A DNA stretch of 63,247 bases, filler included, from Psammoneis japonica (taxonomy: Eukaryota): NCBI GenBank assembly GCA_008632985.1. It is 4 parts of 4 records of this genome, joined end to end, with 100 filler letters (N's around TTAATTAATTAA, not from the genome) between each part and the next. Parts side by side here need not be neighbours in the genome. Positions count along the whole stretch, not along the records: positions 40,387 to 59,518 come from QPGO01000258.1; 3 more parts are not named here. One strand, written 5' to 3'. Below, piece after piece: positions 5,260 to 61,117 of this stretch; positions within the stretch are counted from its first letter, which is position 1; the number at the start of each line of letters is the position of its first letter. The notes beneath the pieces are model-generated. The model worked only from the letters and a program-made list of their open reading frames with translations, was not told the DNA's origin and searched no databases. The position numbers and the translations under genes are program-made.

Positions 5260-5367
5260 AGAAATGAATATCATATAGTATGGAACTCGTTCAGGAAACA
5301 GAATGGGTATTGTTTTTAAAAGTCTTTAGCTTGCTTCCCACAAGAGCGAAAAGGTTGTTCCATCCTT

Positions 5368-26410: not shown

Positions 26411-26510
26411 NNNNNNNNNNNNNNNNNNNNNNNNNNNNNNNNNNNNNNNNNNNNTTAATTAATTAANNNNNNNNNNNNNNNNNNNNNNNNNNNNNNNNNN
26501 NNNNNNNNNN
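26411..26510. other. Artificial contig linker 44N-TTAATTAATTAA-44N
   Basis: Exactly 100 nt with a six-frame-stop 12-mer; identical at 40287-40386 and 59519-59618. Confidence 0.97.
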
Positions 26511-36150: not shown

Positions 36151-37149
36151 GGATGCAAAAAATGACAGCACAGATTTTTTCACCACTAACTCATGTGCAT
36201 GCACAGTGCCTGAGCACCCATCGTCCCTCTGCCCCCCCATCCACCCATGTGTCTGCTGTGTTGGTTGTGTCTGAGCTGTGCTGTGACAATGAACATTGTT
36301 CCCACATGGTGTGTGCACCACATTGTAGTGAGTTGATCCTGCCCTCTGCTGGAGAGTAGCACCAACAAGTGGAAAACACTTGGGGACATTGACTTGTTGC
36401 TGGAAAGCAGTGCAATGTGGAAAAATGGAGGGGGGGGGGGGGGCAGCAAATGCTGGCTTTTTTGCTGTCAAGCAACAACCAGTGTGTGCTCCAGTTCTAA
36501 GTGGGACCTCTCACTGGCAGAGCTGGACTGTGACATGACATGGAAGTTTTTTGTCTTGTGCCGCATGTCACACTCACACATTTCCACATGGTTTTGACAG
36601 CATTTTGCATCATGTTGCAGTGCTGCCATTGGGCTGTCCATTGAACAATTTTTGACATTTCTTGCAGAGCAGTTTGCAATTGTCTTGGTGCCAAATGGGT
36701 GGCTGCACTGTGTGTGGCACAGAAATGTTTTTCTGCGCCATTGCAGAAATTCATGTTTTGGCTCTGATCACCATGTGACATGTCCCTCAGATCATTGTGG
36801 TGGCACAAACAAATGGATTTTTTTTTTGTGTGTCAGTGCCTCTTGAAAGTTTTGCATTTTCTTGCAATGACATGAGACAAATGTGGCAAAAATGCTGGTG
36901 GGCGGTGTTGCAGTGACCAAATTGCCCCATGCCTTTGCAGAAGAATTTGAGCTGGGAAGAGCAAGAGTCAACAAATGACCCACCACCAGCCAGACAGTCA
37001 CAGAACCAAGTCTCTCATGTGCAGGAAAGAACATTGTTGGCCACACTTGTCCATTTGTGAAGCCAGAGCACAAGGATTTGTGCAGCAATGAGATTTTGGT
37101 CATGTGTGAGTGGAGGGAACAATTGTGGTGTTTGTTTTTGTCAAACGAA

Positions 37150-39820: not shown

Positions 39821-40286
39821 GTCTCCTCTGGGGGATGCGTTTTTGGCTTCTGCAGCATCCCTTGAAGCATGCACCAGAGGTGTGGGTTGGCTGGCACCGG
39901 TGTTGCTGGGCAAAGGTGCAACAGCACTTTAAGTTGGGTTTGGGTTTTTTTGTCATTCATGCTTGACATGCAGCTGCCTTGGGAACAACTCTCAGTTGGT
40001 GTGATGAGCCACTCTTCAATGTGCAGGATGCTGGCCAGCGCCAGTGCCACCTCCACTTCTGTTGCTGCTCCCACTGAAACAACAATTCCCAAATCTGATG
40101 GTGGTTCTCTGGCTTCAATCAATTTGACCATTCAAGTGTCTGTTGCTTGAGTGTCTGGTGCTTGTCCTTGCACCCTCATGAGCTGCCAAGACACAACAGT
40201 TGGTGTCAACAACCAAGGTGATCAGCTCTGAATGCACTTTGGCAGCTTTGCAAACAAACCTCATCTCAAGAAATGGCACAAAAAGA

Positions 40287-40386
40287 NNNNNNNNNNNNNN
40301 NNNNNNNNNNNNNNNNNNNNNNNNNNNNNNTTAATTAATTAANNNNNNNNNNNNNNNNNNNNNNNNNNNNNNNNNNNNNNNNNNNN
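40287..40386. other. Artificial contig linker 44N-TTAATTAATTAA-44N
   Basis: Same 100-nt structure as 26411-26510. Confidence 0.97.
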
Positions 40387-41362
40387 GGTGTCTTCCAATC
40401 GGTTTATCAATCACAACTCTCTTTCCGGGGTTCCCAACCGTAATAGCAATATATGTCTTTTTAACCTGACGAGCAGCAAACGCTTCGGACAATGTGGCGA
40501 GAGCAGCTCGTGTCTTTGCCACCACCAACACCCCAGTGGTTCCTTTGTCTAGTCGGTGAACAATGCCCGGGCGAAACGATATGGCTTCTCCCTCGGTGCC
40601 ATCCACATTTATACCCTCAGCCTCTTTTGGATCGACACTTCCGTCTACGTCTACAAAGTCCCCAGTACCATATGGACTTACATTGGCGAGATAATAAGCC
40701 AGCGCATTCACAACCGTTCCGTCCCAATTGCCAGCCGCGGGATGTACCACCATGTCAGCCGCCTTGTTCAAAACAATCATGTGTTCATCTTCAAAGAGAA
40801 TGTCAAGAGGCAAATCTTGTGCGATGATCTCTGTGGGCTTCTCCTCTGCAGGATGTTGAACAACTAGTCTCATTCCGGCTTGTACTTTTGTGGATTTTGT
40901 CTGTACAATGTTTTGTTGATCGTTCTTTCCAACAATACGAACATTTCCGTCTGTGATGAGATGACCACAATGAGATCGAGACAACGTAGGTTCCAGCTTT
41001 GCAACGGCCACGTCGAGACGTTTGTTATGAAGTTCATCCGGTACCATGTATTCTTTTATTTCTCCAGAGTCAGCCTCAAACTCCAAGTCGTCCTCGTCGT
41101 CCATGGGCGTTACGTCAGCTCCATCCATTTCGAGCTGCCCCTCAAAGGCTTCAATGGCATCTAAATCAAAGCTCAAGGCCGGAGGCGGCTTGGCAAAGCA
41201 AGGTTTCGATCGTGCTAGACAATTGACACTGCTTCTAGAAGCCAGGCAAAACGCCGAAACCATTGAGCGCTCAACTGTTAACATAATCGTGAAACACACC
41301 ACGACAAACGATTTTCCTTGGTTTCGCTGTTGACATTGTCCGTCTCGATCTACCCGCATCAT
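40387..41362 (-). CDS. rluD: Second, 3'-truncated copy (probable allele) of the RluA/RluD pseudouridine synthase
   Basis: Reverse complement of ~3812-4786 with a few substitutions (S>R, P>L, E>G, L>V) and one extra A in the leader; cut by the contig linker. Confidence 0.85.
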
Positions 41363-41729
41363 AGAGCGATCTCTCTGCAGATATTCTCATGGAATCAAAC
41401 ATATCGAGTGCTGTGATAGAATGAGCGATATATATTTTGTTTAGGGTTGATAGGGTACAGTACAAAAAGAGGAGGAGTGCGAATGTGAATGGTGATGATG
41501 ATGGGTGATGGTGATGGGCGTTGTTTCTTGGCTCTTTTTATTTTTTTGCAGATCATCTGCATCACCTGTGACTCGTACTTCGACAGACGAAGTTCCGGTG
41601 TGATGTTCGTTCGTTCGTTCGTTGTTAGTTTTATGTCATGTGTTGCGCTTGTGCTGGCACTGACTGTGATGTAGTTGAGAATAGAGCACGTAAAAAAGCA
41701 AAACAACATCATGTGTCTTCACGGATGCC

Positions 41730-44700
41730 AAGGTTAGGTCCTTTCATCAAGTCCACAACTTACAAGCACACACTGTCTAAATGAGCTCAATCGCAGATCG
41801 CCTGGTGTGCCGCTCTTTTTTCTGAGCAGGCAAAGCACAGGTGTCACAGCACCAGTGAAGTCTGCAACAGGTGCTGCTGTCTTTCTGATGCTGAGCAGCC
41901 TGTTGCTGCTGGCAAATTTGCATGTTGTGGGTGAAGTTAGTGTTGACCACAATGATGCAGTCTTTGCTGCTGCACTTTCGGCTGCAACCACTTGTTTCGC
42001 TGGAGCCAGGCTTTGTGGGAACACCTGCCCTTTGGCTGTGCTCCAGGAACTGGCCTCAGTGCACTTCCAACTTGTGCACCAGGCCTTGACTGGGAGTTGG
42101 TGGTTGGGCATTCTTGTTGTGACAGTTTCTCATGCAGAGCTGCTCACTTCACCCACAAAAATTGTTCCAGAAGAAGTGACCAAGTGCACAAACAAGCATT
42201 GTTGGGGAGCTGTGATGGGATTCTTGCTTGCAGTCATGACTGGAGTGGTCAGTGTGAGTTTGATTGTTGCCAACAAAAAGACACTGGACAACCATGGCAA
42301 CTTGTCAGACCCTCCTCTCCAGCTGGCACACAGACTGGAGTGTGCTTCTTGTTGCGCTGCTGCTCTGTCATGACAGCATCAAGGGTTCCACATTGATGTT
42401 GGCACTGGTGCACTGTGCCGATTGTGTTGTTGGCTGGATTGTGCACAGCAGCTGGCTGGACTCAAATTTTCTCCTCCCATGTGTCACAACAATGAACACA
42501 CACAGCTGCTGCACTTTGTGCATTTTCTGCACAAGCATCAGTGTGCTGTGTCCAGCAACAACCAGAGCTCCTGTTGTTCTGCTTTGTGTCTTTGACATCT
42601 CTGGAGTCATGTTTGGGTTGATCATTTGTGGCTTTGGCAGTGGGGGTTCTTGTTGCAGAGCATTTCTCTGGTCAACACCAGCCATTGTCATTGTGAAATG
42701 CACTGCTGAAGTCAAGGAAGGGGGTGCAACTGGCCTGGCAGCCATGCAGTCATTGGAAAATTTTTGCTGCTGGCATTTCTTGGAACCTTTTATCACTGCT
42801 GTCCTGAGCAGTGCAACAGCACCCTTGCTGGCACTTCTGGGTGCAATGATTGTAAGAAAATTGGCCAAGATTGAGTGGCTCAAAACATGAGCAATGTTCT
42901 GCTGGGGTTCTTGACAAAATCACTCTCATGACACTCCTCACCTGCAGCATTGCAAATGGAGTGACACTCAGGTGTGTGACTTCTGTGGGTTTCCACTCTG
43001 CTGCTGACCAACTCCTTGCAAACTCCAAGAAAGTTGCTGTTTAAATGAGTGTTTGAGTGAGTGATCACTGCTGAGCACAAAGTGGAGCAGCGCAACAGCA
43101 CCCACACTGGTGCCAGTGGGTGCAATGATGATGGTGGGAGAATTGGCCAAGATTGAGAGGCACAATGTGAGGAATGCTCTGCCAGAGTTCTTGACAATCA
43201 TTCTCATGCCACTCACCCACAGCGTTGCAAACAGAGTGACATTTGGATGCCTGACTTTTGTGGGTTTCTGCTTGTTTGCTTCTGGCCAGCTCCTTGTGAG
43301 CTCCAACAAACTTGCAGATTCAATTCACATGCACATCTGTGACAGAAGAGCAGAGCAATCTTTCAGTTGGCTGCTGCAGCTCCAACACCAAGATTTCACC
43401 AACAAGTTGGGAAGCAATGCAGGCCACGGCACTGTTTGAATGAGTGTGTGAGTCAGTGAGCTCTGCTGAGCACAAGGAGGAGCATCTGACTTTTGAAAAC
43501 AGAACATCATTTGTCCTGGGATCACTCACAGTGTTGAGATGATTTGTCATTTTGAGCATCAAGCTAAAGTGTTCAGCAGCCTGCCATTTTGCACTTTTGT
43601 GCTCTGCTTGTCATGACAGATCTCCAACACAATGACACCACATGAACAGAAGCTGGGCCCAAGATGCATCTGGAAAAGGCCTGAACCCTTTGGGTGCAGA
43701 GGGCAAGAAGATTGTCTTTTCTTGATTTTTCATTGCATTCCTTCTCAAACTTTGTGCTTGACCTCTTGTCATGTCTCAAACAAATTGGTGCAATGAGTGT
43801 GAATCTAACCATGACAAAAAAGCACAGACCTGTTTAAAAGTGTTGTCAGCACCCTGCCCTGCAACCGGCAAACCCACACTTCCAGAGTGGACTGCCTGAT
43901 GATGTGTTGCAGCACAAGCACAAGTGGATCAGCCAGAATTTGCATGGGCCACTGGTGGCACCCTTCAAAAGCAACATGCTGTGCCAAGCCATTTTCATTT
44001 GAAAAATGCTGATTTTGAATTGTCAAACATGACTCGTGACACAATCCATTTTTGTCCAATTTTGGTTTCAATCACAACTGTCACTTGTCACATTGGAACA
44101 TTGTTGCAGCATCAATGCTTTTGTCTTGTGGGCTCCCTGCAGAACAGAATGTTGAACAATTGCTTTTTCATTGCCTGGCACATGACACAAATCAATGACA
44201 TGACCAATGCTTTCAGGGCCAACAAAACTTGTCTCTAGACCAACAAATCTGTGTTTCTGTGCCACAATGCTTTGTCTCATTTTGTGGAACATGTCTTCTG
44301 GACTTGTTGTTTGACCTTGTTTCATCAATGCCTCTCATCCCACCCAACTCTTTGCATCAACATGTGCAAGTCAAGCTGCTGGCCCCAGAACTTCTTCACA
44401 GCCCAAGTCCACATTTTTTGCTGTCAACACACACACAGTCCAGTTGGCTCAATGGCTGGGTTTTTGCTTTGGCTTCTTGGCCATTGCTCTTGCTTTGTCA
44501 ACTGAAGAAACTCTTTTTGACAGATTCTTCACAGTGTCCCTGTGCCCACATGTTTCAGCAGCTTTTTGTTCAGTGTGCTGCCTCCTTCATGCTGTTGATG
44601 GCAGTGGTGGAGTTGAGCAGTGGCAAGCACACTGTTCCCAGCATTGACACATTTATTTTGTTGGCAAATGAGCTCAAACTTGTTGGGAAGGTGTCTTGGT

Positions 44701-45585
44701 GTCAGTTGGCTGGGGTGTTGGGCTCACTGTTGGGAGATTTCATGAGTGCAAGTGCATCATCATTCACAAAACTCTCCCCTTTGGTCTCCTCCTCCATGTT
44801 CTCAGAATGTTCAACAGCATCCTGAGTGCATGACACAAAGTCTGTTGACTGGTCAGTTGGTGAGTCATCCACAATGTAGCCCTCATTGTGGATGCGTGCA
44901 AATGTGGCACATTTTACGTGATGGTTGCTGCCAACATGGTCAGCATGGTGGGGCTGCACTTTTTTGTCATTTGAGTGGCCTTCAATGATTGTCAAACCAG
45001 CAAGTCAATGCTGCTAAAAGATCGCCCCACTGGGCTGCCTGTGCTCTTCATTGATGCACTTGCCTTGGCAGTCTGTGATGGCTGTGGGTGGGTTGTCAAA
45101 GGTGTGAATGCAAACTGCAAACTTGCACAACAACAAGTGCCCTGCTGATGCCAAATAACAAATCACACAAACCACCAAATGATTCACTCCAAAGAGTGAG
45201 ATAAAAAAAACAAAGGTGAGAGATTGAGTGACAGCAAAGCCAGTCTTGCAATGAATCATCCAGCAAGCCATGACACTTTTCTTCAACTCATCTGGGTTCT
45301 TTGAGACCTCCATTTTCTGGGTCTTCTGTGCTCCAGTTCTAGCAAGAATGATGGCTTTGAGGGTGGAGACACTCCAACTGGAAATTGCAAAATGCTGTGT
45401 TGATGTGCAAAGCATGCACCACAGAAATGAGCAACAACATTGTCTTTGAATGAGATTTGTGCAATGCCTGAGCTGAACATCCACACATTTGTTCTTTGTT
45501 GAAGTTGCACAGAAATTGCACTGTGTTTTCATGCCACAAAAACTCCACAGTGTTTCAAAGAGCAGGTGAAAAACATGGCGACACA
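41730..45585. repeat. Repeat family A, copy 2 (inverted relative to 1-3440, extends further)
   Basis: Colinear reverse complement of 1-3440 up to 45210; same spurious ORFs (e.g. MLELTRSWPEANKQK). Confidence 0.9.
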
Positions 45586-46855
45586 ANNNNNNNNNNNNNN
45601 NNNNNNNNNNNNNNNNNNNNNNNNNNNNNNNNNNNNNNNNNNNNNNNNNNNNNNNNNNNNNNNNNNNNNNNNNNNNNNNNNNNNNNNNNNNNNNNNNNNN
45701 NNNNNNNNNNNNNNNNNNNNNNNNNNNNNNNNNNNNNNNNNNNNNNNNNNNNNNNNNNNNNNNNNNNNNNNNNNNNNNNNNNNNNNNNNNNNNNNNNNNN
45801 NNNNNNNNNNNNNNNNNNNNNNNNNNNNNNNNNNNNNNNNNNNNNNNNNNNNNNNNNNNNNNNNNNNNNNNNNNNNNNNNNNNNNNNNNNNNNNNNNNNN
45901 NNNNNNNNNNNNNNNNNNNNNNNNNNNNNNNNNNNNNNNNNNNNNNNNNNNNNNNNNNNNNNNNNNNNNNNNNNNNNNNNNNNNNNNNNNNNNNNNNNNN
46001 NNNNNNNNNNNNNNNNNNNNNNNNNNNNNNNNNNNNNNNNNNNNNNNNNNNNNNNNNNNNNNNNNNNNNNNNNNNNNNNNNNNNNNNNNNNNNNNNNNNN
46101 NNNNNNNNNNNNNNNNNTGACAACCAAGTTGTGCTGCAAGCTGCAAGAGCTGTCACAAGTGGCGCAGCTCTGCATGACGTGCAATTTTGTCTGTGGTTGG
46201 TGCTTAAGAACTTGGTGTGAAAAACATGGGCAGGACACCTGGACACCTGTGATGAGCTGCAAAAGCCTGAGTGCAGCATTTGTGATGGATTGCCACCTGC
46301 ATTGTCAAGGCAAACAATGGCAGGAGCTGCAGCAAGAGTTTTCAAGCAGGTGCCACATGTGCAGCAGACCATGGACAGCTGTGTGACGTGTTGGCAGCAA
46401 AGGAGATGATGCGCAAAAGGCCTGTGTGAAGCACAACAACCTTCAATTCATGGCTGTGCCTGGCAACAATGGGAGTGTGCAGAGCAACAGCAAGTGTTGC
46501 AAAGAAAGATCTTTTGAACCAAATGCATGATGGCAGCAAGTGGGTGCTCTGCTGGCATGTCATGTGCTGCAGAAGCTGCCCGTGCAGCAAAACTGTCTCC
46601 ATGTGCAATTGCACTGCTTGATGACAGCTCACATTTGTCAACAAGAGCTCACGAGAATGCTTTGGCCACACCAGTGGCAGTGCCCTGGGTGGCCATGGAT
46701 CCACAGTGTGGAGAGAATGTGGACATTGAGCAACTGGAAATGGCAATCAGCTGATGGCCAACATTGAGAAGATTGAAAGAGATGCAGCAAGGAAAAGAGA
46801 GAAAGCATCACAAAGTGCAGGCAGTGCTGATGAAATGGGCAAGGCTTCAGGGAGA

Positions 46856-47028
46856 TGAACAAATTGCCCTGCAGTCGCATGAACTGGGGACAAGACCAAA
46901 AGAAAGATTTGCAACATCGTGCCAGTTTTCTAGAAGTGAGATCTAAACCTGAGGAACCGCTCTGTGCCCAATCGTCAATGACAAAGCACACCAAACTAAT
47001 TCAAATTGATCACATGGTAAATTTTTCA
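46856..47028 (-). repeat. 3' LTR (173 bp, TG...CA), preceded on the minus strand by PPT-like GAGGGGAC
   Basis: Aligns with 53246-53422; TGAA/TTCA termini. Confidence 0.92.
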
Positions 47029-50000
47029 GTCCCCTCAAGTTGATGACTTGAACAATGAGTCGGCTTGACCCAATTTACTCTCCGGCCACATTTGGTCACT
47101 CTAACATGGGTGGCATGCCAAACAAATGTGTCCAGTGAGTGACTCACCCATTGCCATCAACTCCCTCATGGCGTGGCAGCAAATGGAGTTCGACTTCTTC
47201 TTCAAAGTGGACTCTGGACTTTGTGTGTTGTGGACAACTGACATGTTGTCCCCACAGATGTGGGATGGACCAGTCAATGGCACATCCATCATCCTTGGCT
47301 CATGTGGCAAGCTGTGCAAAGACTCCATGCCTTGTTTCATGGCTGCAAACTAGGCTCCAAAAACCAAGGCTTCAACTGCACTTTGGCGCTTAGAAAACCA
47401 CACCATCAAGGTCATGTGCATGCAGATGAAGAAGCCGGTGTGCGAACATCTGGTCAACTCATCATTTGGATGATCCAAGTTGACGAACAAGTGCAGATCC
47501 ACCTCCAAGCCTGGAGGTTCTGGCACATTGGGTGGGATTTCTCTTTCCTGCACATCCCCATGAAATGACTTCCAGTCACATTCCTTGAAGTCAGACATGT
47601 CAATGTCCAGTCATGTCGGGTCAAACACCAGCCTGGCATTGTGTCTTGCCTTGAGACATTCATGTGCATGTGGAAAACAGCCTCAAGGGGACCCTCCCTG
47701 GGCACAACAAGAAATGAGGCAAGCTCCAAAACCTCTGTCATCAGATTGACGTGTCTGAGTTCCACTGTCCATTGCAGGACACCTGCCTGCAACTGGCAGA
47801 ACTGGGCATCCTCTGCCTCAAGCTCAGGCAATGCATCTGTAACTTGGGATGACAATCCCGTGGAAATGGAGTCGATGCCCAGCATGGCAATGTCTGTCCA
47901 GGGCAGCATTTGTCCAGATGCGCCTCCACATTCTTGACAGCCTGCTGGATGCACTTGCTGAAGCTCATGCCTCATGCGCAGATGCCATTTGGCAATTGTG
48001 CCTTTTGGATCTTGGCACCCAGATGCATCTCAGGGTTGCCGATTGAACCAGGCTTCATCTTGAAGCAATGATCCAACTCCTTGAGTGTGCTCATGGCATT
48101 GTGGTGTGCCATTGGCACATCATCCATGTGCAGCAGTGCATGCACGCAGTGCCAAAACCTGTCCTTGGATCAGACCACTTCCTCAAGCGATCTGGGGCTT
48201 CCACCCAAGATGGTGCACACAGGAGGCCAGGTGATTCCTGAAGGCCGTGCCTGTGCTCTTCAAACTGCAAAGTGCGTGCTTGACTGTTGCATGCCTCCCT
48301 GCATTGTGCCTGAACTCTGGGTTTAAAGTCATCATGATCATCCAACTGTTGGGTGCAGTGACACAAGCATTTTCAATGCCAGCTGCCTTGACCTCTGAGT
48401 CATTCAGAGCAGCCAGATGAAGGTGATCCTCACACTCTCACGTGACACAATGCTTGTGCATGTCAAGGTGGTGGGAGCATCTGTGTGGCATGCCCACCAG
48501 CCACATGGTGTGCCTTGTGCTTGAAGTCTTGTGGCTCTTTACGTTGAAGACCAAGTGACATTTGACATGCTGGCATCCTGCCAGTTCCTTGTTGTCATCA
48601 ATGATCTTGAATGCCTTGTTGACAACACCCATTTCCTCATCTGTGGTGTCTTGCCACAGGCGGTTGCCGTTTGCCTGGTCAATCTTAACCATCTCATTGC
48701 ACATCTTGGGAGTGCACATCCTGCACTTGTGTGTCCATTTGTGACACCACTTGTTCATTGCAGCAATGATCTGCTGCCATTTCTTTAAGGCACATTGAAC
48801 ATGGAACCCACCATGCAAAGGCTGGTTCATCCCGATCGATCAAGCTCTGGCATGCTCAGCCAACTTGACCATGTTGGATTCCTTCAAGTCTGCAAGGCGT
48901 TCCCAAGTCATGGTCCCGTCTGTCCAGCTGACACAAAGGTGCCATCCTTTGGTCATCTTTTGCATGGTTTGGTGTCTTCTGCCATCCTGTGGAAAGGTGC
49001 CATCCTTCTGGACTGCATGCCCATCAGTTCTGTGGTCAACAATGGCGTCCAGAAGCAAGCACTGATTGCCTTTGTTGTCACATTGTGTGAAGATGTTCTC
49101 AGCTGTGACATTGGCTGCAACCTCTGCTTCCTGGCCATCAGGAAATTCGACCTTGTGTGTGCGAGTGCCTAGAATGGGATTGTCATTGGCCCTGCCCATC
49201 GGTGTTCCATCCAAGTTGAGCTTGCACCGCTTGACTGTCCCAGTTTGCTGGGTGTCCCCATGAGGCAGCAATGCTTCTGAGTTTGCATGAACATCAAAAG
49301 CAGCATCAGGTGCATTGTCCTCATTCTTGGGTGCACTCGCAGGAGCATCTTGGTCAGCATTGTCCTTGCAGGGATCAAAAGTGGGAGTTGTGGCATCAGG
49401 GTCATTGATGTCTCCAACCGTCATGCCTGGGCCTGGCTTGGCCTCTGTTGGCCCATCAAATTTCTTGCGCAATGCCAAGTGCATCTCGTGGCACTGTTCC
49501 TTGGGGTTCACCAAGGGTTGACAGGATGAATGGAGGACAACTTGTCCATTGTCCTTTGGCATCTTGGCTGTCATGGCGGGACTCATGTCCCGACTCGGAC
49601 CAAGGCAATGCCCCAGGACCTCCTTGTCCTCGGGGAATGAGACGGCTGTGTCCCCAAACATGACCCAGTCGCACCAGCTGCACTCGCATGTGTGCGAAAT
49701 GTCGGCTGTCTGTCTGGACACTGCGGTTTCTGGAACCTCTCTGTCTAACTCACAAATGTTGTGGTCTGTGTTTGATCAGACAAGAGCTTCAAGCTCAAGA
49801 CAATCATCACAAAGATGCTTTGGGGCTCAAGTCTTCACCATCTTGCATCCCACTCCCCCGCTTGAGTTCACGAACAGTGCCCTCAGTGAAGTTTGACCAT
49901 GGAGCACAGGGTTCAGTCTGCTTGACATGGCAGTCGGCCTCCCTGGCCTTCTTGCTGAACTGACCCAACACCTGGTCTTTTGCTCTGTCCACGATCATTG

Positions 50001-53000
50001 TGTGGGGCACCCCATCTTGTGTGAAGAGCAAGGATGGTGGTGCTTTGTGCGCTGGTCCTTTAGATCTGAGGGGACAAGCCCATGCCCAACCATTGGACAT
50101 GCCAAAGACTTGTGCACAGGTGTTGCCCCTTCTCAACTCAGTCAAGGAGACCAAGGCATTGGAGTGCATCTCCTTTGCAATGTGCCTGTGTTGCAACTGT
50201 TGGTTGTTGGTCCAAAACCTCCAAGACAGCATTGAATGGAGGACCATTCATGCACCATGCTGCACCGTGACTTTGACAGTGTTCTCAGCATCCTTGACAC
50301 TGACAGATCAGTTCTTGACCAAATGTTCTGTGTCAACATGCAGTCCCCACTTTGTCATCTTGAGCGAAGAGAGACCAATCAAGGCAAGCAGCATGTGGTC
50401 ATCACATGCATGCAAGATGTCTCAAAGCAGCTGATTTCCCAGACAGTCTGAGGTCTCTTGCATCACAGTGCATGAGAGCTTCACGCTCATGATGTGGATC
50501 TGAGGATGTGCATTGTCCACAGTCTCAGGCACATGACCAAGAGAGTCTGTCATGGAATCCTCTCTGGTTTGAAAGTCGGCAGTTTTTGTGGGTCCCATTC
50601 CGGGGACTCGCAAGCAAGTTCTGCTGCTGTGCCATTTTGCATGGTGGCTTCATGCTCAGAAGCAGTGGGTTTGGAGGTGGGAAAGCAACTCGTGACATCA
50701 TTTAACTCCAACAGAATCAGGAGCTCATCCTCACATGCATCTGTCAATGTCACTGCATGTGACTCACTGTCAGGCTTTGTCAGCAGGAATTTTGGTTGTA
50801 AATTGACTCCCACTTCATTCAGCCACAGCTTCAGGGGACACAAAAGGTTGTGTTTGAGGTGCAGGACATGTGCTGCCTGGTGGACTGCCAGGACATGTTG
50901 GTGGCCCGAGGTGAGGTCTGCACATGCGACGGCTCTGCTGACAGTGCACAGACTCTTGCTGGCACCCTTTTTTGGGGTCGCAACCTGTGACATCTGCTGG
51001 ACAATCATGGTCAAGCACAATTAAAGCATGCTTGCCCAGTGCACTTGCATCTGCATGACTGTCCAACTTGGTGCAAGCTTCAGTGTGCATGGCTTCTCAC
51101 ATGGTTGTTTGGGTTGCACGCAGGGTTCGAAGCGGACTGAGACAAAGGGCCAGAGAGGATCATTCCTTCTCCTTCCTGCCGGGTTTGAGGTCGCCATTCT
51201 TGTCATGCCAGTTGTTGGCCATTGTGTCCTTCAGTGATTGGAAGTTAGAGCGGTTGTGCTTCTGCTTGACAGCAGCCCACTTTGTGGTTTCTTTGGACTC
51301 ACCAGCAGCATCGTCCTGCTGGTCCTCAACATGAGCAGCAATGGCTGCAACAGCACTGGTGAGGGCCTTGATCTGCTTTGCGTTTTTTGGTGGCAGACAT
51401 TGCACCTTGGCCACCACAAGCATTGTGCAGGGACTCTGGTTTCTTCCGTGCTTTTGGGGACATTTGCTTGCACTCCTTGTCAGGGCAGCACTTGTCCTTG
51501 ACATCTTTCTCATGAATGATGTCATCTCATTGGCGCTTTGCCTCCTTCAAGGTGGCAACACAAAGCTTCTTAGTTTTGCCGTCCAGCTTGGACTGCTTGA
51601 TGAAGTCTTCACATGAGACAACACACCCATCAAAGTCACTGCGCAGCATCATGCTGGCCACAACCTGTGCTTTGACAGAGTCAAGGAACACACCCTTGAT
51701 GCTCTCCAGAAGGTGGTGCACCTTGGAGCGTTCATCAATCCTGGCATGGCCACACTCCTTGAGGCCCTCAATGCCATGTTTTGTCTGTGTCATTTGGGCC
51801 CAAGAAGTGGTTGCACAAGTTCAGGCAGGCTGTCCTGCCATCCTGATTGTGTCGAGCCTTTTTCACATGTGACCAGCAAGAACACGTGATTGCAGCAACA
51901 ATCTCCCAAACCTTGATGTCATCAGCGACAAATGTTTTGGTGGGTTGCAGGCCAGCCCCAGCAGCGAAGTGGGGGGCATGGGCAATCATCTTGGCACAGG
52001 CATTGGTGCAGCTGTTGGCGTTGTCATCTGCCTCCGGTGCAACTGCCTGGTTCTCTTGGACCACGCAGGCTGGCTGGGGGCATTTTGGTCTTCCCGGAAC
52101 TGGCACGAAGATGCTCGTGGATGGCTTCCATGGCTTCCATCATCTTCAGCCAGTCCTTCTTGATGACAGCAGGTGGGGTGTCAGGGTTCTCATGGGCTGA
52201 TTCTGCTGTGCAAAAGTGGCGGCACCCCCTGACATGGTCGAGGGTGATGTCGGCAGCATGCAATGTGCATGAGATGCGCTCACAGTGGTGACGAGCAGCA
52301 AAAGCCGCAAGCTTGAGGTTCATCTCAGCCTGCAGTGATGCAGCAGTCCCCAGGTTGGGTTGTAGATTCACTCCACTGCCTGCTGCACCTCCTGGGCAAT
52401 GCACAACCTTGCACAAGGTCTCGACCTCGTGATCGTCAAGACGACGCAGTTCCTCGACAGTGTCGACTCCCTGGTCAGCAGTGAGAGCCGCTGATGCTTT
52501 GTTCGTGAAGCCAAGTCTGCGGCATGCTGCACGCATGGCTGCGACATGGGCTGCTATGGTTGATGGCTTGGTGGTTCGTTAACGACAGGGAACTCTTTCA
52601 AACGAGTTGTGTGGTTCTCATGCAAAAAGTGAGCGAGTTGCGCGAAGTTCAGATCGCTTTTTCATCGTCATGTATGTGAAATCCGTTATTTTATCTGACC
52701 AACGCGTTTAAAATTAGACTTCAGTGACTATACAAACTATTTACGTTCATACGATCTTCCTGATCGATACTGATGGTGAGTGCAAAGTATAATATCGAGA
52801 ATTATATAGCGAAATGACTATTTAATATATAGACATGACAAAAAAGTTTAGGCGACCAACGGATGTTATACCGTTTTAAAATCTATTTATGATATTATCT
52901 CCCATCGATTTCGAATCGCTCACGCGTTTGCCTCCGAGATTGATGGGGCCCTTGATAACTTCGGAATGGAAATGGCGTCCCAAATCCATGGATTTGCGCT

Positions 53001-53231
53001 CTGTGTTCGCGTATGTACGCCATAAAACACATCAGAATAGACGATGCTATAGTTATCAATAAGTATTTAAACTTGTACTGATTCTGGGAGCATTAAAACT
53101 CGTTCAACCACGAACGTCTCTTGCATTCTTAGATGTTTTCTAGTCATCCCTGACTTTCGTGGAACGTTCTGTGGTATTACGAATCATTCGCAAGCAAAGA
53201 AGATACTCAGAATCGTCGTTTCGTACGTCGA

Positions 53232-53242
53232 TGGCTCTGATA
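53232..53242 (-). promoter_or_regulatory. Primer-binding site, initiator tRNA-Met type (TATCAGAGCCA)
   Basis: Three nt inside the 5' LTR; matches the canonical Copia PBS TGGTATCAGAGC except CTT replaces TGG. Confidence 0.8.
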
Positions 53243-53245
53243 AAG

Positions 53246-53422
53246 TGAACAAATTACCCTGCAGTCGCATGAACTAGGGACAAGACTAAAAGAAAGACTT
53301 GCAACATCGTGCCACTTTTCTAGAAGTGAGATCTAAACCTGAGGAACCGCTCTGCGCGCGCCCAATCGCCAATGACAAAGCACACTAAACTAATTCGAGT
53401 TGATCACATGGTGAATGCTTCA
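53246..53422 (-). repeat. 5' LTR (177 bp, TG...CA)
   Basis: Aligns with 46856-47028, with a 4-nt indel and about a dozen substitutions. Confidence 0.92.
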
Positions 53423-56400
53423 GAGAGACAAGCTCAAGTTCGCTGGTTGGTGGTTGCATTTGTTTTTCACAATTTTGTTTTGCGTGGTGGCACATTGCTT
53501 TTGAAAGTGTTGCAAAACAGCAGAGTGACAAGAAGGCAGGGGTTGGTGCTGCAGCAGACGCAGATGGCATGACCACACAGACAATGCTTTGATTAATGTG
53601 ATGGAGACAGCTGCTGATGTGGAACCCCCAGACAAAGCAAGAATGGCTGAGTTGGTGGAATCTGCTCCACCAGATGCAGTGACAAACATGTGACACAGGG
53701 CACAGCAACAGTTGATGATGCTTTCACTGGTGTGACAGCTGCTGATGCAGAGACCCAAGAAACAAAGAAAGAACAGCAAAGTCAGCAACAATTGCTCCAA
53801 CTGATGCAACAATGGAGGAAGTGACACCTTGTGCAGTGGCAGTCATGGAAACACCAGTGTTGTTGCATGAGGCAACCAGCGACACAAGCAAGCACCACTT
53901 CACCAGAGGAAATCATGATGAGGGAAATGATGACTGTGGTGGAGGAGGAGGCAGTGCCAAAAAGTGTGATCATGACAACATGCTGTTTGGACAGCAACTG
54001 CATGACTTGTCAGCCTGTGCCAAGCAAAGTCAAATTTTGCTTGGGCCAAGTTGTGTGAATTGCAGCAAGTGTGCTTTGACAAGGAAAAGGGCAAAAACAA
54101 GCACAAACATCACCAACCGACAGCGTCAAATCCAGCCAATGCACTTGCATGTTCTGCAGGGAGCAGTGACATGCTTTGTGTGACCTGCACAAGGCAAAAT
54201 GTGAGACAGCCATGCAGCCAGCCAAGCACAACAGGAGGAAGAAACAGAGGGGGGTGGGAGCAGCAACATCTTTGCAGCATCCAACAGAAAACAGCAGTGA
54301 CAACATCATGCAATTTGCATGGTGACAGAGTGATGATGACAGGAATCAGGAACCATGCACAATGCACCATCATTGCCCCACCAGTGCTGGCACACATTGA
54401 CAGCACCAGAGAGAAGGAGAGGACAGCTGGCCGCGCACCACCACAGGTGCAGCATTGCACCCAGAGGGGGGAGTCGGGCTGACCACAACAGGGCAGACAC
54501 GAACATCAAATTGCAGGTGCATTCCAGCAATGGCAGGCATTGCAGGCCAACCAGCAATGGTGTGTTGGGTGAAATGATGTCCTTTTCCCAGTGCCATCAT
54601 TGGGGTTGTTGCTGGCAGCACACCAGGGAAAGCCAGGGACAACACAAAACAGATGAGTGTGCATTGCCAGCAGCATGTCAGCAACAAGTTTGGGGGGGAA
54701 CTGGAGCCAGCAACAAGAGGGCAGTTGCTCCAGCAGCAAGCAGTGCAAGCAATGTGTGAGGACATTCAGGTGGAACCACTTCTTTGTGCCAGCAACAACT
54801 GGCATGCTGGGGCATTGGCAGCATGGATGCAGGCATGCTCAAACACATTGCCAGTTGCAAGGAATGTGGCTGCCCAAAATTTGCACCAGCAAATTTGCAC
54901 GACTGCTGGTGTTCTCACAAGCTTTGCACCGGTTGCCTCCAGCCACTCCTTGTGCAGTGTGCTGGCATCCCACAGAACCTGGGTTGTTTGTCAATTGACC
55001 AGACTGGACTTGCACAAGTGCCTTCAAACACTCAATGAAAATGACAGCACTGTGTTGAGGTGGTTTGGACAATGTGCACAAATGGGTGCTCGCATGTGCC
55101 TCAAGCCCGCCCCCCCACTGTGCTGGCAACACACATCTTGGCTTCATTGCTTCACTCACATCTGTTTCATTTCAGGATTGTGGGCATGACATCAGTGCTC
55201 ATTGTGTCCCATGTCTCAATGGTTGAGCCTCTGCCAGATTTTCCACAAAGTCACCACACCAAAAGGTGTGGGCATGCACAGCTGTCTTGTGTGGAGTGAA
55301 ACATTTTCTGAGTGTGCACGACAAATGCGATTGCTGCATGGCACCACCGGGTGCACACTCTCATGTTTCAACTGGCCCAGAAAATGAGATGCAGACAAGT
55401 GCCACATGTTTGTGACTGTTTGCTCCCAATGCCATGGCTCTGACAAGAGCACAGAGATGCAAAAAGGCACTCACAATGGGAGATGCAATGGTGGTGGGTG
55501 TCACAAGTTGCCACACAACTGGCACATGCATTGCAATCATGGCCATTGCAGCTGCAATGGCATGCTGGCATTTAGGATTTGACACAAATTCTGGAAGCTG
55601 ACTTGACTTTTTCATTCTCAATTGTGCGCATCAATCTCAAATTTGTTTTTGGAAGTGCTGCAGTGGTGAAAATGTGTTGTCTGACACTTGGCTCCTTTTT
55701 TAAAAGTGTTGTGCAATGCCCAACAAGTTTGCATTGTGCAATGGACTCCTCTTTCCTCTTTGGTGTCCTCAGGCTCAGTTTTTCACACACAAGACACCTC
55801 CACTCAGATTCATCACACATGCAACCCTCCGCCACGATCAGCACAACACCTCCTGGTCTCATTCTGGCTTCACAGACTTGTTCACAGCACATGTCATGAG
55901 TGAAGAAGACAAGCTGCTGAGCACTTGATGCAAGGCATTTGTGCATTCAGTGTTTGCATCTGTGTTGCTGGCATTGCCAGAGGTCAATCATGACCTGATG
56001 CAAGCACAATCAACCTTGTCAAGTGCTTTGAATGACTCCTCTTTGTCCAAATCTTCAGTGCCCAACAACAGATTGAAAAAACCAAACTGGCTCATTGCTT
56101 TCTTTTGCACTGTGGAGCCAGATGCCAAGAGCAACATGTCAAGAAACAAAAAGAAGAAAAGTCACCTGTGTCACTCACTCCCAATGTCTTGGATTGCTGT
56201 CCCAAGCGTCAATGTGATGTGGAGCTCCCAAAGCACATTCATTCTTTTTGCTTTCCAAATGGATGCAACGAGTCTCCAGACAAAATGTTGCCAACATTGT
56301 GGACCATGGTGTTGACATTGAGCAAAGGACATGTCACTTGCATGCTGCCATTCTTGCAACATGCTGGGAATGCAAGCCATGCATCACAGTCACATGACAA

Positions 56401-57640
56401 GAAGTCTCTGATGAAAAAGCCAAGACAAGGCACACTGGTTTTCAAAAGGAAAGTGACACTTTGTTCAACTCGGCAAGAAAATGCACTGAGAAACCATCCC
56501 TGCTGCATTGTGGAGCAGAGACAGGTTGAATGCATCACTGTGCAAGCTGGATGTTGCAGCTGAGGAGTTTGCAGTGGAAGCCCCTGTCACCACACAAATG
56601 GCTTTCTCTCAGCACATTGAAACAAGATGAATCACTGCACAGTGGTCTAAGAGCTTGTGGCCCTGTCAATGCCAAGTCATCTCACTTTGCTTGGCACTTC
56701 ATTGTGCTGGCCAACAAGCCCACAATGTCTGCAATGTGCAACATGGGGAAGGTGCACTTGAATGTTTCATGCATCAGTGGTCAGTGGAGTGGGCTCCGTG
56801 GAAGCAACACTGAATTCTGTTGTGGAGAACAGCTCTAAAAAAGACAATGTTCATTGTGAACAAACCCAACATCAGTTTTGGCCTCTGATGTTTCCACCTG
56901 GATGGAGCCAAACACCCTGCAAGCAACCAAATGCAAACATGCAAACATCTTGTGAAGTCAAAAATGATGGGTGTGGCTCATCAGATTTTTTGCAGGATTC
57001 TCATGTGCAGTTTCTGCACATTGATGAATGGCACCTGCTGCAACAACAAGTGGCCATCTTGCTCACCACACAATTTCAAGTTTTGTTGCAACAAACACTG
57101 TTGTTGCCAAGAACCTGTCCTCATTGATGCTGTCCCCCCCCCCCCACACACACATTTTGACTCTGCTCTTCTTTGGTGTCTCAAGTGTGCAGCACTGTTT
57201 TGGATGTAGAGCCAGGCAGTTCAATCTCAGTGGTTGATGAAAGGAGCAAGCTCTTGCCACTGCTTGTGTCTCCCATGACAGATTCACATGTTGGCCCACA
57301 ATTTCATTTTTCAAAAGCTTCTCCACAAGCCTTGATGGCTTTTGTTGCCCTCTGAGGTCACCACCGCTGCATGTCAAATTTCCTTCTTGCCAGAAATTTT
57401 GGGTGTTTCTAAGGAAAATTGAGCAGAATCTGAAAGACATGTCAATTTGGCCAATGAGATGCATGGGGACAAAAAAATGAGCATTGGAGACAAGGTTGCT
57501 TTTCATTTTTTATCTTGGTGCTTTTGGCGGCACTGGCGACATGAACTTTGGCTCCATGTGCTGGATCTTTCAGGTGAGGGCTGCATTTGGGATGCTTCTT
57601 CAATTCACTGTCTTCATTTGTTTTGCCATGACATCAATGG
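53423..57640. repeat. Unclassified CpG/TpA-eroded sequence; probable continuation of 46119-46855, interrupted by the Copia insertion
   Basis: Same dinucleotide erosion as the other repeats; GAGA on both sides of the Copia; no assignable domain. Confidence 0.5.
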
Positions 57641-59518
57641 TGCAATGAGTGTGATTCCAACCATGACAAAAAAGCACAGACCTGTTTTTTAAAGTGTTGT
57701 CAGTGCCTTTGCCCTGCAACCAGCAAACCCACACTTCCAGTGTGGACTGCCTGATGATGTCACAGCACAGGCACAAGCGGATCATCCAAAGTTTGCATGG
57801 GCCACTGGTGGCACCCTTCAAAAGCAACATGCTGTGCCAAGCCATTTTCATTTGTTGAAAAATGCTGATTTTGAGTTGTCAAACATGACTCTTGGCACAA
57901 TCCATTTTTGTTCAATTTTGGTTTCAATCACAACTGTCAAATGTCACATTGGAACATTGTTGCAGCATCAAAGCTTTTGTCTTGGGCTCCCTGCAGAACA
58001 GTCTTGACACAAATGAATGGAATGACCAGTGCTTTCAGGGCCAACAAGACTTGTCTCTAGACCAACAAATCTGTGTTTCTGTGCCACAATGGTTTGTCTC
58101 ATTTTGTGAGACATGTCTTCTAGACTTGTTGTTTGACCTTGTTTCATCAATGCCTCTCATCCCACCCAATTCTTTGCATCAACATGTGCAAATCAAGCTG
58201 CTGGCCCCAAAACTTCTTCACAGCCCAAGTCCACATTTCTTGCTGTCAACACACACAGTCCAGTTGGCTCAATGGCTGGGTTTTCCACTTTGGCTTGGGC
58301 CATTGCTCTTGCTTTGTCAACTGAAACTCTTTTTGACAGATGCTTCACAGTGTCCCTGCCCACATTTTTTAGCAGCTTTTTGCCCAGTGTTGCCTCCTTC
58401 ACACTGTTGATGGCAGTGGAGGAGTTGAGCAGCAGCAAGCACACCATTCCCAGCATTGACACATTTTGATGGTGAGTGAGCTAAAACTTGTTGGGAAGGT
58501 GTCTTGGTGTCAGTTGGTTGGGTTGTTGAGCTTGCTGTTGGGAAATTCCACAAGTGCAGCTGCATCATCATTCTCAAAACTCACCCCTTTGGTCTCCTCC
58601 TCCATGTTGTCAGAACATTCAACAATGCCCTGAGTGCATGACTCAAAGTCTGTTGACTGATCAGTTGGTGAGTCATCCACAATGTGGCCCTCATCTTCAA
58701 AGTCACCTTTGAAATCCACTGTTGCCTCATTGCATGCCATCCTGTCACCTGGTGTGTCATCAGCATTCTGCCTCTCATGAGCGCTGCACCATCCACAACA
58801 GACTGTTCTTGTGGTGCCATGTGCTGTGTGGTGTCAGCCATGACACACAAATTGGCCACCATCTGCTGCTTCATTTCTTTGTGACCAGTTGTCAGATGAT
58901 CTGCTTCGCTCTCAAGCACCAACATGGGCAGGCATGGATTGTTGAGGCCAAGAGACTTCTGCCAAACCAACACTGAACTGTGCCTTTTTTGTTTGTTGCC
59001 ACACTGATTTTTCTGCCAACGTTTGCATCACCTCACATTGTTGGAATCCATCTGTCATTTTGCTTGATGCTTGGGTCAATCCACTCAAGTGCTTTTTGCC
59101 TTTTTTCTGTGCTCATGCTGGATTTCTGCTCTGGACAATGGCACAACAATGACACATCATGTGACCCCCACAGACAATCACAAAGAGCAGCAGTTGTGCA
59201 CAAGGGAGAAAACTTGCACTGCTGCATTGTGGATGCTGCCAACATGGTCAGCATGGTGGAACTGCACTTTTTTGTCATTTCAGTGGCCTTCAATGATTGT
59301 CAAACCAGCAAGTGAATGTTGCTAAAAGATCATCCCACTGGGCTGCCTGTGCTCCTCATTGATGCACTTGCCTTGGCAGTTTGTGATGGCTGTGGGTGGG
59401 TTGCCAAAGGTGTGATTGCAAACTGCAAACTTGCACAACAACAAGCACCCTGCTGATGCCAAATGACAAATCACACAAACCACCAAATGTTTCACTCCAA
59501 AGAGTGAGACAAAAAAAA
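57640..59518. repeat. Repeat family A, copy 3 (inverted, partial, with ~0.5-kb extra segment)
   Basis: Reverse complement of ~1-1395; segment ~58690-59230 is absent from copies 1 and 2; ends at the same A8/T8 run as window position 1. Confidence 0.88.
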
Positions 59519-59618
59519 NNNNNNNNNNNNNNNNNNNNNNNNNNNNNNNNNNNNNNNNNNNNTTAATTAATTAANNNNNNNNNNNNNNNNNNNNNNNNNN
59601 NNNNNNNNNNNNNNNNNN
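59519..59618. other. Artificial contig linker 44N-TTAATTAATTAA-44N
   Basis: Same 100-nt structure as the other two linkers. Confidence 0.97.
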
Positions 59619-61117
59619 GGGTCAGCGGGTCGGCGGGTCGGTGGGTCAGCGGGTTGGCGGGTCAGTGGGTCAGTGGGTCAGTGGGTCGGTGGGTCAACAG
59701 GTTGGTGGGGCGCCCCACCCATTTTCTTCATTGCTGGATGCCACGGCGATGCATTGCTGTGGCTGTCACTTGATTGGAGCTGACTGTGCTTGGGGTTTGT
59801 GACAAAATCTGTTGAATGGACAGCCCGGTTTGAAATCCTTTTGAAAAGTTCCTTGGACAAATGAGCACAGGAAGAACCAGCGGATCTTGCCGCGAAAATT
59901 CTCGCGCAATTCTGCAATGCGTGAGAACCCAATGGTGCGCTGCATGGCTTGCATTTGTGACAAAGAACAAGCTCAACAATCTGTCAACACACCAGTTTTC
60001 TGAGCGCAACATGCCAAGCTTCTGCTCACTTTACATTTTGTGCTGTCAATTGCAACGTTGTTCACCAGATTGACTGGCGGTCATCATTGTTTGACAAAAG
60101 CCGTCACAAACGGGGTGCGAATGCTCCATGGCATGTTGCCTGTTTTTTTTTGCATTGTTCAATTGATGACTTGCGCATCTGGTGTGTGGCTCCGCACTTG
60201 CTGGCGTGCAGAACACGCACAAATGCATGAGAGGGGAAGCGCGGGGAATTGCCAATGCATTGTTTTTTGTTCGTGTGTTGAGCACACATGTGACGAAGGG
60301 CAGTTTGTGGCAACTCCCTGGGAGCTCACCCTTTCCTCAGAAAAACAGGGTGAAAGGTGGCAATCCCAAGGAATTTTGTTCAAAAACACTGCAAAACCAA
60401 ACTGAGATGCGCTCCATGTTCTTGAAGACTTTTGTCCTGCACTTGACCTTCATTGAGGTGGATTTGGCTTGAAGTGTGCAGGAGATCATTGAGGCTGCAT
60501 GTCTTGGCCAAACAGCGCATTCAGGAATTTCCCAAGTGTCCCCACCATGGACAGAAGCTCTTTTTCCATTGTGACGTGAACACCAAATTTCAGGCATGAT
60601 GGTGGCGCAGTTTTTGACATGATGCACTTCATGGTTTTGGAGACTTTTGTTCCGCACTTGACCTTCATTGAGGTGGATTTGGCTTGAAGTGTGCAGGAGA
60701 TGATTGAGGCTGCATGTCTTGACATCAGCGGCGTGTGTTGAGACAAGATCGGCGGGTCGGCAAGTCGGAAGGTCGGCAGGTCGGCGGGGCGCCCCATCCA
60801 ATTTCTTCATTGCTGGATGCCGTGGCAGTGCGCTGCTGTGGCTGACGGGCTCCAGTCCTGGGCGGGACTTTTTGTGACATTGGGCCAGCAGAATTCTGCG
60901 TGCGAGCTCCGTGTTGCGAGAGTCCAGCCAATGGACATTGTTGTCTTCAACACCAAACAAACAACCAAGTTTGTGGCACAATTGCGGCCATTGCCGCTTG
61001 ACATTTTTGGCAATCCGCCCACCCTGCGCCATTCATGAGACATCCGCAAATGGCGCAGAAGCAAAAAATGTCAAAAGTTGTTGGGTGGATCGCTCAACAA
61101 GTGTGCCACAAAATGAC
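59619..61117 (+). repeat. Complex repeat: GGGTCRGY-type minisatellites (59619-59706, 60750-60790) in a ~1.08-kb higher-order unit, plus an ~80-bp direct repeat
   Basis: Both minisatellite arrays are followed by gggcgcccca.cca.tttcttcattgctggatgcc; 60427-60507 is repeated at 60641-60721. Confidence 0.8.

Follow-up and report, generated by a model that had tools for sequence, protein, structure and literature searches.

The window analysed here, a stretch of 63,247 nucleotides from the diatom Psammoneis japonica (GenBank assembly GCA_008632985.1), carries on its minus strand, at 46856-53422, a degenerate Ty1/Copia long terminal repeat (LTR) retrotransposon in which every strongly conserved tyrosine codon has been rewritten. 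The best explanation of the whole, which we consider very likely, is that this element was degraded in place by the loss of its TA and CG dinucleotides, both converted to TG or CA. Firmer still, and held with high confidence, are the parts of this account that concern the direction of the change, its timing in DNA after integration, the extent of the affected domains, the reading of the flanking bases and the lead of TA loss over CG loss. A process of this kind has already been described, in one 2026 preprint on Bigelowiella natans; its occurrence in a diatom is new within the literature searched.

The coordinates proposed by an earlier reading of the DNA made without database searches (hereafter the sequence-only reading) proved exact, and homologue searches gave the element its identity. 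The best-preserved 561 residues have 141 relatives at E<=1e-5, the top one at 1e-138 with 48% identity. The best 120 of these 141 are polyproteins of 1204-1887 residues with the Copia-type reverse transcriptase (RT) family PF07727 (RVT_2) in every one, and the named matches among the relatives listed belong to the diatoms Fragilaria, Nitzschia and Mayamaea. With tblastn, intact homologues are collinear over element nucleotides 2358-6320 (window 51066-47104) in three frames, and the integrase lies upstream of the RT, TEPC standing at 49917 and HMDD at 48130, which is the Copia order. For the gag-like open reading frame (ORF), 522 relatives reach E<=0.001, the lowest value being 5.6e-29; their residue 2 aligns with query residues 30-36 (the methionine at 52536), and the match continues to about residue 190.

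The direction of the change can be read from codons that the family conserves. We took 60 intact relatives as the outgroup and kept the 531 codons that are covered by no fewer than 30 of them with agreement of 80% or more. None of the 25 strongly conserved tyrosine codons is retained: 14 have become cysteine (TAY>TGY), 10 histidine (TAY>CAY) and 1 a stop, while histidine is kept at 12 of 13 codons and cysteine at 6 of 7, with no change of either to tyrosine. The polarisation as TA loss, which the sequence-only reading had drawn from a few motifs, is borne out by these counts, and the motifs themselves hold when compared with the homologues: YVDD has become HMDD (Y in 50 of 51), TEPY has become TEPC (31 of 60), WYDW has become WCDW (WY.W in 56 of 60), GRYLGP has become GHCLGP (R in 57 and Y in 25 of 60) and KLAEHA stands where homologues have EVAEYA (Y in 55 of 60). 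As to the concern that the family might itself be TA-free and poor in tyrosine, the tyrosine content of the relatives is ordinary, at 2.9-4.6% in 120 of 120.

Arginine codons tell of the second dinucleotide. Arginine is kept at 12 of 41 codons and replaced elsewhere by tryptophan (6), histidine (8), glutamine (4), cysteine (2), a stop (2) or other residues (7), so that its losses are mostly those predicted by CGN>TGN/CAN. Among the 166 changed codons, 100 fit a single step (TA>TG 25, TA>CA 20, CG>TG 19, CG>CA 36), which is an upper figure because the classifier ranks the TA and CG classes first; the other 66 consist of 15 other transitions, 26 transversions and 25 multi-step changes. The change thus ran from TA to TG or CA, and it did so on both strands, with 14 cysteines against 10 histidines and 25 TA>TG against 20 TA>CA.

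The timing of the change is recorded in the LTR pair. The element being on the minus strand, its 5' LTR is the right-hand copy. The pair appears as direct repeats at 46856-46967/53246-53357 (95%) and 46966-47029/53360-53423 (89%), and BLAST aligns it at 90.4% over 178 bases. A scripted alignment resolves the differences into 13 substitutions and one 4-base indel. At 46866, 46886, 46897 and 46992 a TA of the 5' LTR corresponds to TG or CA in the 3' LTR, the opposite holds at 47019, CG faces TG or CA at 46965 and 47003, and the remaining differences are 4 other transitions and 2 transversions. Every LTR context quoted by the sequence-only reading is present in this alignment, and its four TA sites, single reverse site and two CG sites were correct; its account had omitted the 6 other substitutions and the indel. 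Only 16 of the 174 bases lie in TA, yet they account for 5 of the 13 differences (binomial p 0.0045), and the 3' LTR has 4 TA losses where ordinary transitions at TG/CA lead one to expect 0.66 (Poisson p 0.005). Since the two LTRs were copied from one template and yet differ at TA sites, these changes arose in the chromosome, after integration. The pair can serve as a rough clock: outside the target sites, 6 of about 173 LTR positions have diverged, and the interior has lost 91% of its TA.

The affected DNA extends well past the element. Sharply bounded TA-free blocks lie at 1-3250, 14500-17750, 34600-40250, 41800-52400 and 53450-59500 and make up about half of the window. Pooled, they hold 82 TA in 26,649 bases, an observed/expected ratio of 0.05, against 1098 in 27,922 bases (0.58) of gene-bearing DNA. 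Their CG ratio is 0.13 against 1.01, TG and CA both stand at 1.9, AA is at 1.15 against a normal 1.13, and no other dinucleotide shifts much. The adjacent genes therefore do retain TA and CG, as had been noted from the sequence. Within the element, the 1-kb bins at 47001-51001 have observed/expected ratios of 0.04-0.10 for TA, 0.19-0.33 for CG and 1.6-2.2 for TG/CA.

Both flanks of the element fall in such blocks. The right-hand flank encloses a uDENN remnant (PF03456, E 7e-7, 30 bits for a cut-off of 22.3) at about 56180-56329 on the plus strand, so that host-derived scraps have been mutated too. The CG left amounts to 6-9% of expectation in the flanks and 29% in the Copia interior, and the TA left is similar, at 6-10% against 8.5%. 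This heavier loss of CG from the flanks, at a similar loss of TA, suggests that the element landed in a stretch already stripped of both dinucleotides.

Survival of TA in the blocks varies with its neighbours (R, purine; Y, pyrimidine). The YTAR context accounts for 61 of the 82 TAs left in the blocks but for just 194 of the 1098 in normal DNA (Fisher p 2e-26), and there are 0 RTAY survivors where about 329 are expected. An additive per-strand model fits all ten contexts and beats a single rate (likelihood-ratio chi2 158.9, df 3); it gives decay values of 3.35, 2.5, 0.86 and 0.28 for T, C, G and A as the base 3' of A, which are rough because the surviving TAs may in part have been re-created. 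According to this model, an A:T pair would flip fastest when T or C follows A. The skew is not a Copia property, as 78 related metagenome Copia loci with 23,738 TAs have the normal mix of contexts (33.8/48.9/17.3%). Tyrosine codons preceded by a pyrimidine gave 14 cysteines against 3 histidines, and those preceded by a purine 8 against 10 (p 0.035), a split which indicates that an A followed by a pyrimidine becomes G. The evidence that this test gives for the T-A-Y strand rule is moderate. As for the LTR, its 8 ancestral TAs are all YTAR or half sites, with no RTAY, and the mix in the adjoining leader is normal; the purging of the LTR may have preceded insertion, or it may have taken place in parallel in the two LTRs.

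TA loss precedes CG loss and can proceed without it. The piece at 59619-63247 has 3 TA (2.7% of expectation) and 138 CG (84%), and TA loss is thereby separable from CpG decay. With the two losses uncoupled in this way, the proposal of the sequence-only reading that a second mutator acts at TpA stands as the best reading. The change at CG agrees with the decay of 5-methylcytosine in its direction (arginine to tryptophan, histidine, glutamine, cysteine or stop) and in its place (blocks only), and among the surviving CGs the GC-flanked contexts are enriched. Diatom transposons are CG-methylated by DNMT5 (PMC9998398), and by analogy we infer that CG loss is the decay of methylated CpG, a second and independent process.

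Duplication as such is probably not what triggers the mutations. Window 1-4786 recurs in inverted orientation at 40387-45210, over 4.8 kb and at 96.8% identity, and this duplicate joins a TA-free block to part (1.5 kb) of a gene for pseudouridine synthase (PF00849), the edge between block and gene being at homologous positions in the two copies. The TA-free 3.2 kb has 75 substitution events, including 8 TG<>CA doubles against an expectation of 0.18 (p 2e-11); a double of this sort arises when each lineage changes an ancestral TA or CG in its own way, so the process continued after the split. The genic 1.5 kb has kept 57 and 55 TA, with 15 differing sites and normal TA and CG, and it is this untouched part that argues against duplication as a trigger. 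The process had been described as repeat-targeted, a reversal of repeat-induced point mutation (RIP), and this part of the description is not supported: the genic duplicate is normal, the uDENN remnant is mutated and the 5' 1 kb of the element is unmutated. Targeting looks domain-wise rather than homology-wise, and we lean towards chromatin, not homology, as its cue.

The duplicate pair may represent alleles or a haplotig, paralogues or redundant contigs. Its second copy begins at the end of a piece and has a 1-base indel within the ORF. Named relatives of the pseudouridine synthase are solely diatom, with identities of at most 69%, so that the database searched contains no close relative of the host diatom. 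A third copy, at 57500-59518, is 97% alike to copy A over the first 290 columns. A parsimony polarisation with this third copy was dropped, as homoplasy at TA and CG makes calls of derived TA unreliable.

The features of the element and its flanks are collected in Table 1.

Table 1. Coordinates of the Copia element, its parts and its flanks in the window
Feature	Position	Strand	Basis or remark
3' LTR, 173 b, TG..CA	46856..47028	-	in hypermutated zone; 4 TA + 4 CG left
Polypurine-tract-like purine-rich run, just upstream of 3' LTR	47031..47040	-	sequence
pol (protease-integrase-RT-RNase H), with frameshifts and TGA stops	47104..51066	-	tblastn of intact homologues
pol motifs TEPC, WCDW, KLAEHA, HMDD	49917, 49676, 48866, 48130	-	homologue alignment
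gag-like ORF, Met at 52536, downstream part degenerate, end approximate	51100..52536	-	homologues
Hypermutated element interior	47029..52400	.	counts: 18 TA (8.5% of expectation), 91 CG (29%)
Unmutated 5' enclave: about 45 first gag codons, leader 52537-53245, 5' LTR	52400..53422	.	
Primer-binding-site-like motif abutting 5' LTR	53234..53242	-	sequence
5' LTR, 177 b, TG..CA	53246..53422	-	7 TA + 8 CG left
Older TA/CG-free flank, N run 45587-46117	41800..46855	.	TA 10%, CG 6% (41900-45586)
Older TA/CG-free flank	53423..59518	.	TA 6%, CG 9% of expectation (53450-59500)

The purine-rich run beside the 3' LTR may be a polypurine tract, and the motif beside the 5' LTR resembles the site at which initiator tRNA-Met primes Copia elements and may have that role; Rfam and tRNA scans of the window gave no match. 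The 4-base TCTC adjoins both ends of the element, and since the surroundings are CT-rich it is weak evidence for a target-site duplication. A tblastn search with 9 Copia relatives found no other Copia copy in the rest of the window.

On other aspects of the window, direct repeats at 43786-45210 and 57638-59518 (87-94% identity, with an insertion of about 540 bases in the second) bracket the Copia element about 14 kb apart; possibly they belong to an older and larger element, either as its LTRs or as a pair of copies of it. Long ORFs overlap on both strands of the TA-free blocks, for example at 45014-46372 (-) and 45496-46386 (+); with TAA and TAG gone, only TGA stops are left, hence such long false ORFs. 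The piece at 59619-63247 opens with a GGGTCRG-like 7-mer array, includes two N runs and has internal repeats (59685-59765/60764-60844 and 60406-60506/60621-60721), and Pfam found 0 families on it. The linkers at 26411-26510, 40287-40386 and 59519-59618 are identical, each made of 44 N, TTAATTAATTAA and 44 N, the 12-mer being presumably a six-frame stop spacer. The window is thus a chain of at least 4 assembly pieces, and no physical neighbourhood can be read across the linkers.

Near its 5' end the element itself passes from mutated to normal DNA. The gag relatives align unbroken across this edge, near 52400-52550, and the edge is therefore no insertion junction. The enclave beyond it (52450-53245) has 52 TA and 51 CG in the normal context mix. 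TA is absent from 52363-52555 and CG is dense down to 52422, which places the TA edge about 130 bases beyond the CG edge. The enclave was either shielded, for instance by promoter chromatin, or restored from a younger copy, and the latter weakens the LTR clock only.

Restoration would mean that gene conversion or recombination with a younger, unmutated copy later replaced the 5' LTR and leader; the enclave would then be young and the LTR timing void, and the hypermutation would stand. We regard this as rather unlikely, though it has the most to be said for it among the alternatives. The asymmetry of the LTRs could also reflect such a swap, and the fully normal TA and CG of the enclave agree with it, as do the 6 non-target substitutions and 4-base indel between the LTRs and the 734 related pieces in the public sequencing run X1, some of which join LTR positions. 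The unbroken gag alignment, the primer-site-like motif abutting the LTR and the TCTC at both ends are points on the other side.

For the degradation in place that we favour, the following course may be proposed. A Copia element would have inserted into a stretch already without TA and CG, and would then have decayed in situ. Its methylated CpG would turn into TG or CA through deamination of 5-methylcytosine, while an enzyme would deaminate adenine to hypoxanthine, read as G, at 5'-T-A-Y in silenced-chromatin DNA. With tyrosine codons and TAA and TAG all rewritten, mobile and junk DNA would be permanently inactivated. An adenine deaminase is favoured because A>G is expected from hypoxanthine and because a specificity that leaves AA untouched is too strict for a polymerase. 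That such an enzyme would be domain-guided, act at 5'-T-A-Y and be of the TadA/ADAT type is a tentative proposal, made by analogy. More doubtful is the wider picture of a heritable diatom defence system, in which a nuclear DNA adenine deaminase derived from TadA/ADAT and reading 5'-T-A-Y might act on silenced chromatin independently of CpG methylation, erase all tyrosine codons, TAA and TAG there, and be the same as, or convergent with, that of Bigelowiella.

Pol eta produces A:T mutations at WA motifs. Without any dedicated enzyme, error-prone replication or repair of silent chromatin, of the Pol-eta type and perhaps triggered by T:G mismatches left by 5-methylcytosine deamination, might err at TpA, and TA and CG are indeed lost in the same blocks. 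This is improbable: AA, the other WA dinucleotide, is undepleted (1.15 against 1.13), a ratio with which the Pol eta candidate of the sequence-only reading fits poorly, the erasure is near-complete with a strict T-A-Y/RTAY hierarchy, and the piece at 59619-63247 lost 97% of its TA and kept 84% of its CG, so that CpG deamination is not needed. A shade less probable again is a single enzyme with two activities, deaminating C as well as A. Both losses converge on TG/CA in the same domains, and ADAT2 proteins acting on both A and C, cited in the B. natans preprint, provide a precedent (bioRxiv 10.64898/2026.01.13.699255). The losses are uncoupled in degree, however, with 8.5% of TA and 29% of CG left in the Copia interior and 2.7% and 84% in the piece at 59619-63247, and their edges differ, TA being absent from 52363-52555 where CG is dense to 52422.

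Of the words sampled from the element, 68% occur in run X1. The stretch is covered by X1 contigs with word depths between 60 and 200, one of 985 bases spanning 53356-54339 with 0 differences. The 734 X1 pieces of at least 85% likeness differ by 570 transitions and 167 transversions, and the 40 examined among 737 X1 differences include five sites where a residual TA appears as TG/CA, along with three TG/CA doubles. Runs X2 and X3 contain almost nothing of the stretch, and no RNA run was listed with it. The agreement with X1 speaks against a consensus error, yet it is no independent proof. Modified-base errors can be context-specific, and the stretch occurs in one run only, possibly that of the source sample. 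An assembly or base-calling artefact at modified bases is nevertheless very improbable: the X1 contigs reproduce 68% of the words and cross from LTR to flank without a mismatch, the element has ordinary substitutions, indels and frameshifts as well, and a systematic miscall would yield neither tyrosines changed to cysteine or histidine according to site nor copies that differ as TG and CA.

Retroelements are classic editing targets, and ADAR prefers G on the 3' side. Editing of RNA or cDNA before integration, of an ADAR or APOBEC kind, is still the least probable of the alternatives. Unless conversion explains all the LTR differences, it is refuted for the greater part of the signal, for the LTRs differ at TA, both strands are mutated about equally, mutations also affect DNA that is no retroelement (the uDENN remnant, both flanks and, with its TG<>CA doubles, the duplicated block), and the 3' preference seen here is for a pyrimidine rather than G. 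The preference of ADAR for U before the edited A (bioRxiv 10.64898/2026.01.13.699255) is a point in its favour.

Several observations weigh against the degradation of the element by TA and CG loss as we read it, besides the possible swap of the 5' LTR and the roughness of the fitted rates. A Pfam scan of the element in three frames, in which X stood for each stop, gave 0 families, which is why the family assignment is taken from homologue searches. Single differences within the old duplicate number 9 for TA<>TG/CA and 12 for CG<>TG/CA, where ordinary transitions predict 11.8 each, and they are not counted as ongoing loss. The few half-site differences between copies are, in a hand tally, 3 for and 5 against the T-A-Y strand rule. 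X1 may be the assembly's source sample and hence not independent support. The 78 metagenome Copia loci (469,628 bases) contain no 1-kb window with TA observed/expected below 0.2 and TG/CA above 1.5, in a sample biased by search patterns that include arginine codons and by short contigs, so that mutated copies are missed; these loci give no sign of the process being general in diatoms. Finally, the analysis covers one element copy, one window and one run, and no deaminase was seen.

An A:T>G:C counterpart, on chromosomal DNA, to RIP and to the antiviral deaminases of animals has one prior report, with an enzyme candidate only. Diatoms are ecologically dominant and belong to a different branch of the supergroup from B. 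natans. Beyond what is in the preprint's main text, the present element offers polarity from 25 tyrosines, an LTR pair as a clock and an edge between mutated and intact DNA inside one ORF. The flank hierarchy, RTAY > half sites > YTAR, is a constraint on any candidate enzyme, and TA loss without the need of CpG loss provides a further handle. If the wider picture of a defence system shared with or convergent on that of Bigelowiella is true, A-to-G editing of DNA would be an old defence of the stramenopile-alveolate-rhizarian (SAR) supergroup, from which natural DNA adenine base editors might be drawn; if the enzyme is a natural DNA adenine deaminase, it would be of interest to base-editing work. 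For genome annotation, gene callers are misled by false ORFs in TA-free blocks, and dead genes are missed by Pfam.

Fungal RIP, as in Neurospora, converts C to T at CpA and so creates TpA, is triggered by duplication and needs RID. The diatom process shares with it a heritable, dinucleotide-specific hypermutation at the DNA level by which transposons are killed in sharply bounded blocks. Unlike RIP, it destroys TpA, targets A:T pairs, doubles CpA and TpG and leaves a duplicated genic stretch untouched. The CpG decay of methylated transposons has in common with it the change of CG to TG/CA in transposon DNA, and explains the CG half only. Hyperediting by APOBEC3 and ADAR is a restriction by deaminases that precedes integration and affects a single strand, of cDNA or RNA. 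A shared trait is that retroelements are left with transitions specific to strand and context, whereas the diatom change is post-integration, is found on both strands and includes non-retroelement DNA.

The tRNA A34 deaminases always face U33-A34. TadA prefers UACG(A), in which the A has T or U on its 5' side and a pyrimidine on its 3' side, and like the adenine base editors it deaminates adenine to a base read as G (PMC8052359). The process proposed for the diatom would have both traits in common with them. The natural substrate of TadA is a tRNA loop and its activity on DNA had to be evolved in the laboratory (PMC8052359). In the diatom fit a 3' T is at least as favourable as a 3' C.

The belief of the sequence-only reading that this had not been described has been overtaken, as TpA>TpG/CpA hypermutation was already measured in Bigelowiella natans (bioRxiv 10.64898/2026.01.13.699255). 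In mutation-accumulation lines of this species, the DNA of an integrated giant virus (nucleocytoplasmic large DNA virus, NCLDV) and of a virophage mutated at a rate of about 6e-7 per site and generation (bioRxiv 10.64898/2026.01.13.699255). The mutations, seen in a subset of lines, were nearly all A>G/T>C, and those were all at TpA (Mettrop et al., bioRxiv 10.64898/2026.01.13.699255). The genome has TpA-poor, TpG/CpA-rich clusters, its TpA-poor coding sequences are enriched for reverse-transcriptase and DDE Pfam families, the NCLDV region is partially depleted with a Rho TpA of 0.45, and an ADAT-like DNA adenine deaminase was proposed (bioRxiv 10.64898/2026.01.13.699255). Among diatoms, mutation accumulation in P. 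tricornutum was reported with a GC>AT bias and mutable CG, and no TpA effect was reported (PMC6604790); full-text literature searches found no diatom report of TpA hypermutation.

The diatom and B. natans have in common the change A:T>G:C at TpA, its local character, its incidence on foreign or silent DNA and the resulting low TpA with high TpG/CpA (bioRxiv 10.64898/2026.01.13.699255). Here too the change is regionally confined and genes are normal. G:C pairs, on the other hand, do not remain unchanged in the diatom, as CG observed/expected is 0.13 in most blocks, separably from the loss of TA. B. natans is a rhizarian in which events were seen de novo, whereas the diatom offers a footprint only, with near-complete erasure (0.05) over about half of the 63-kb window. 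The diatom element also adds CpG erasure and a hierarchy of flanking bases to a picture in which the main text of the preprint does not deal with CpG, trinucleotides, flanking bases or diatoms (bioRxiv 10.64898/2026.01.13.699255).

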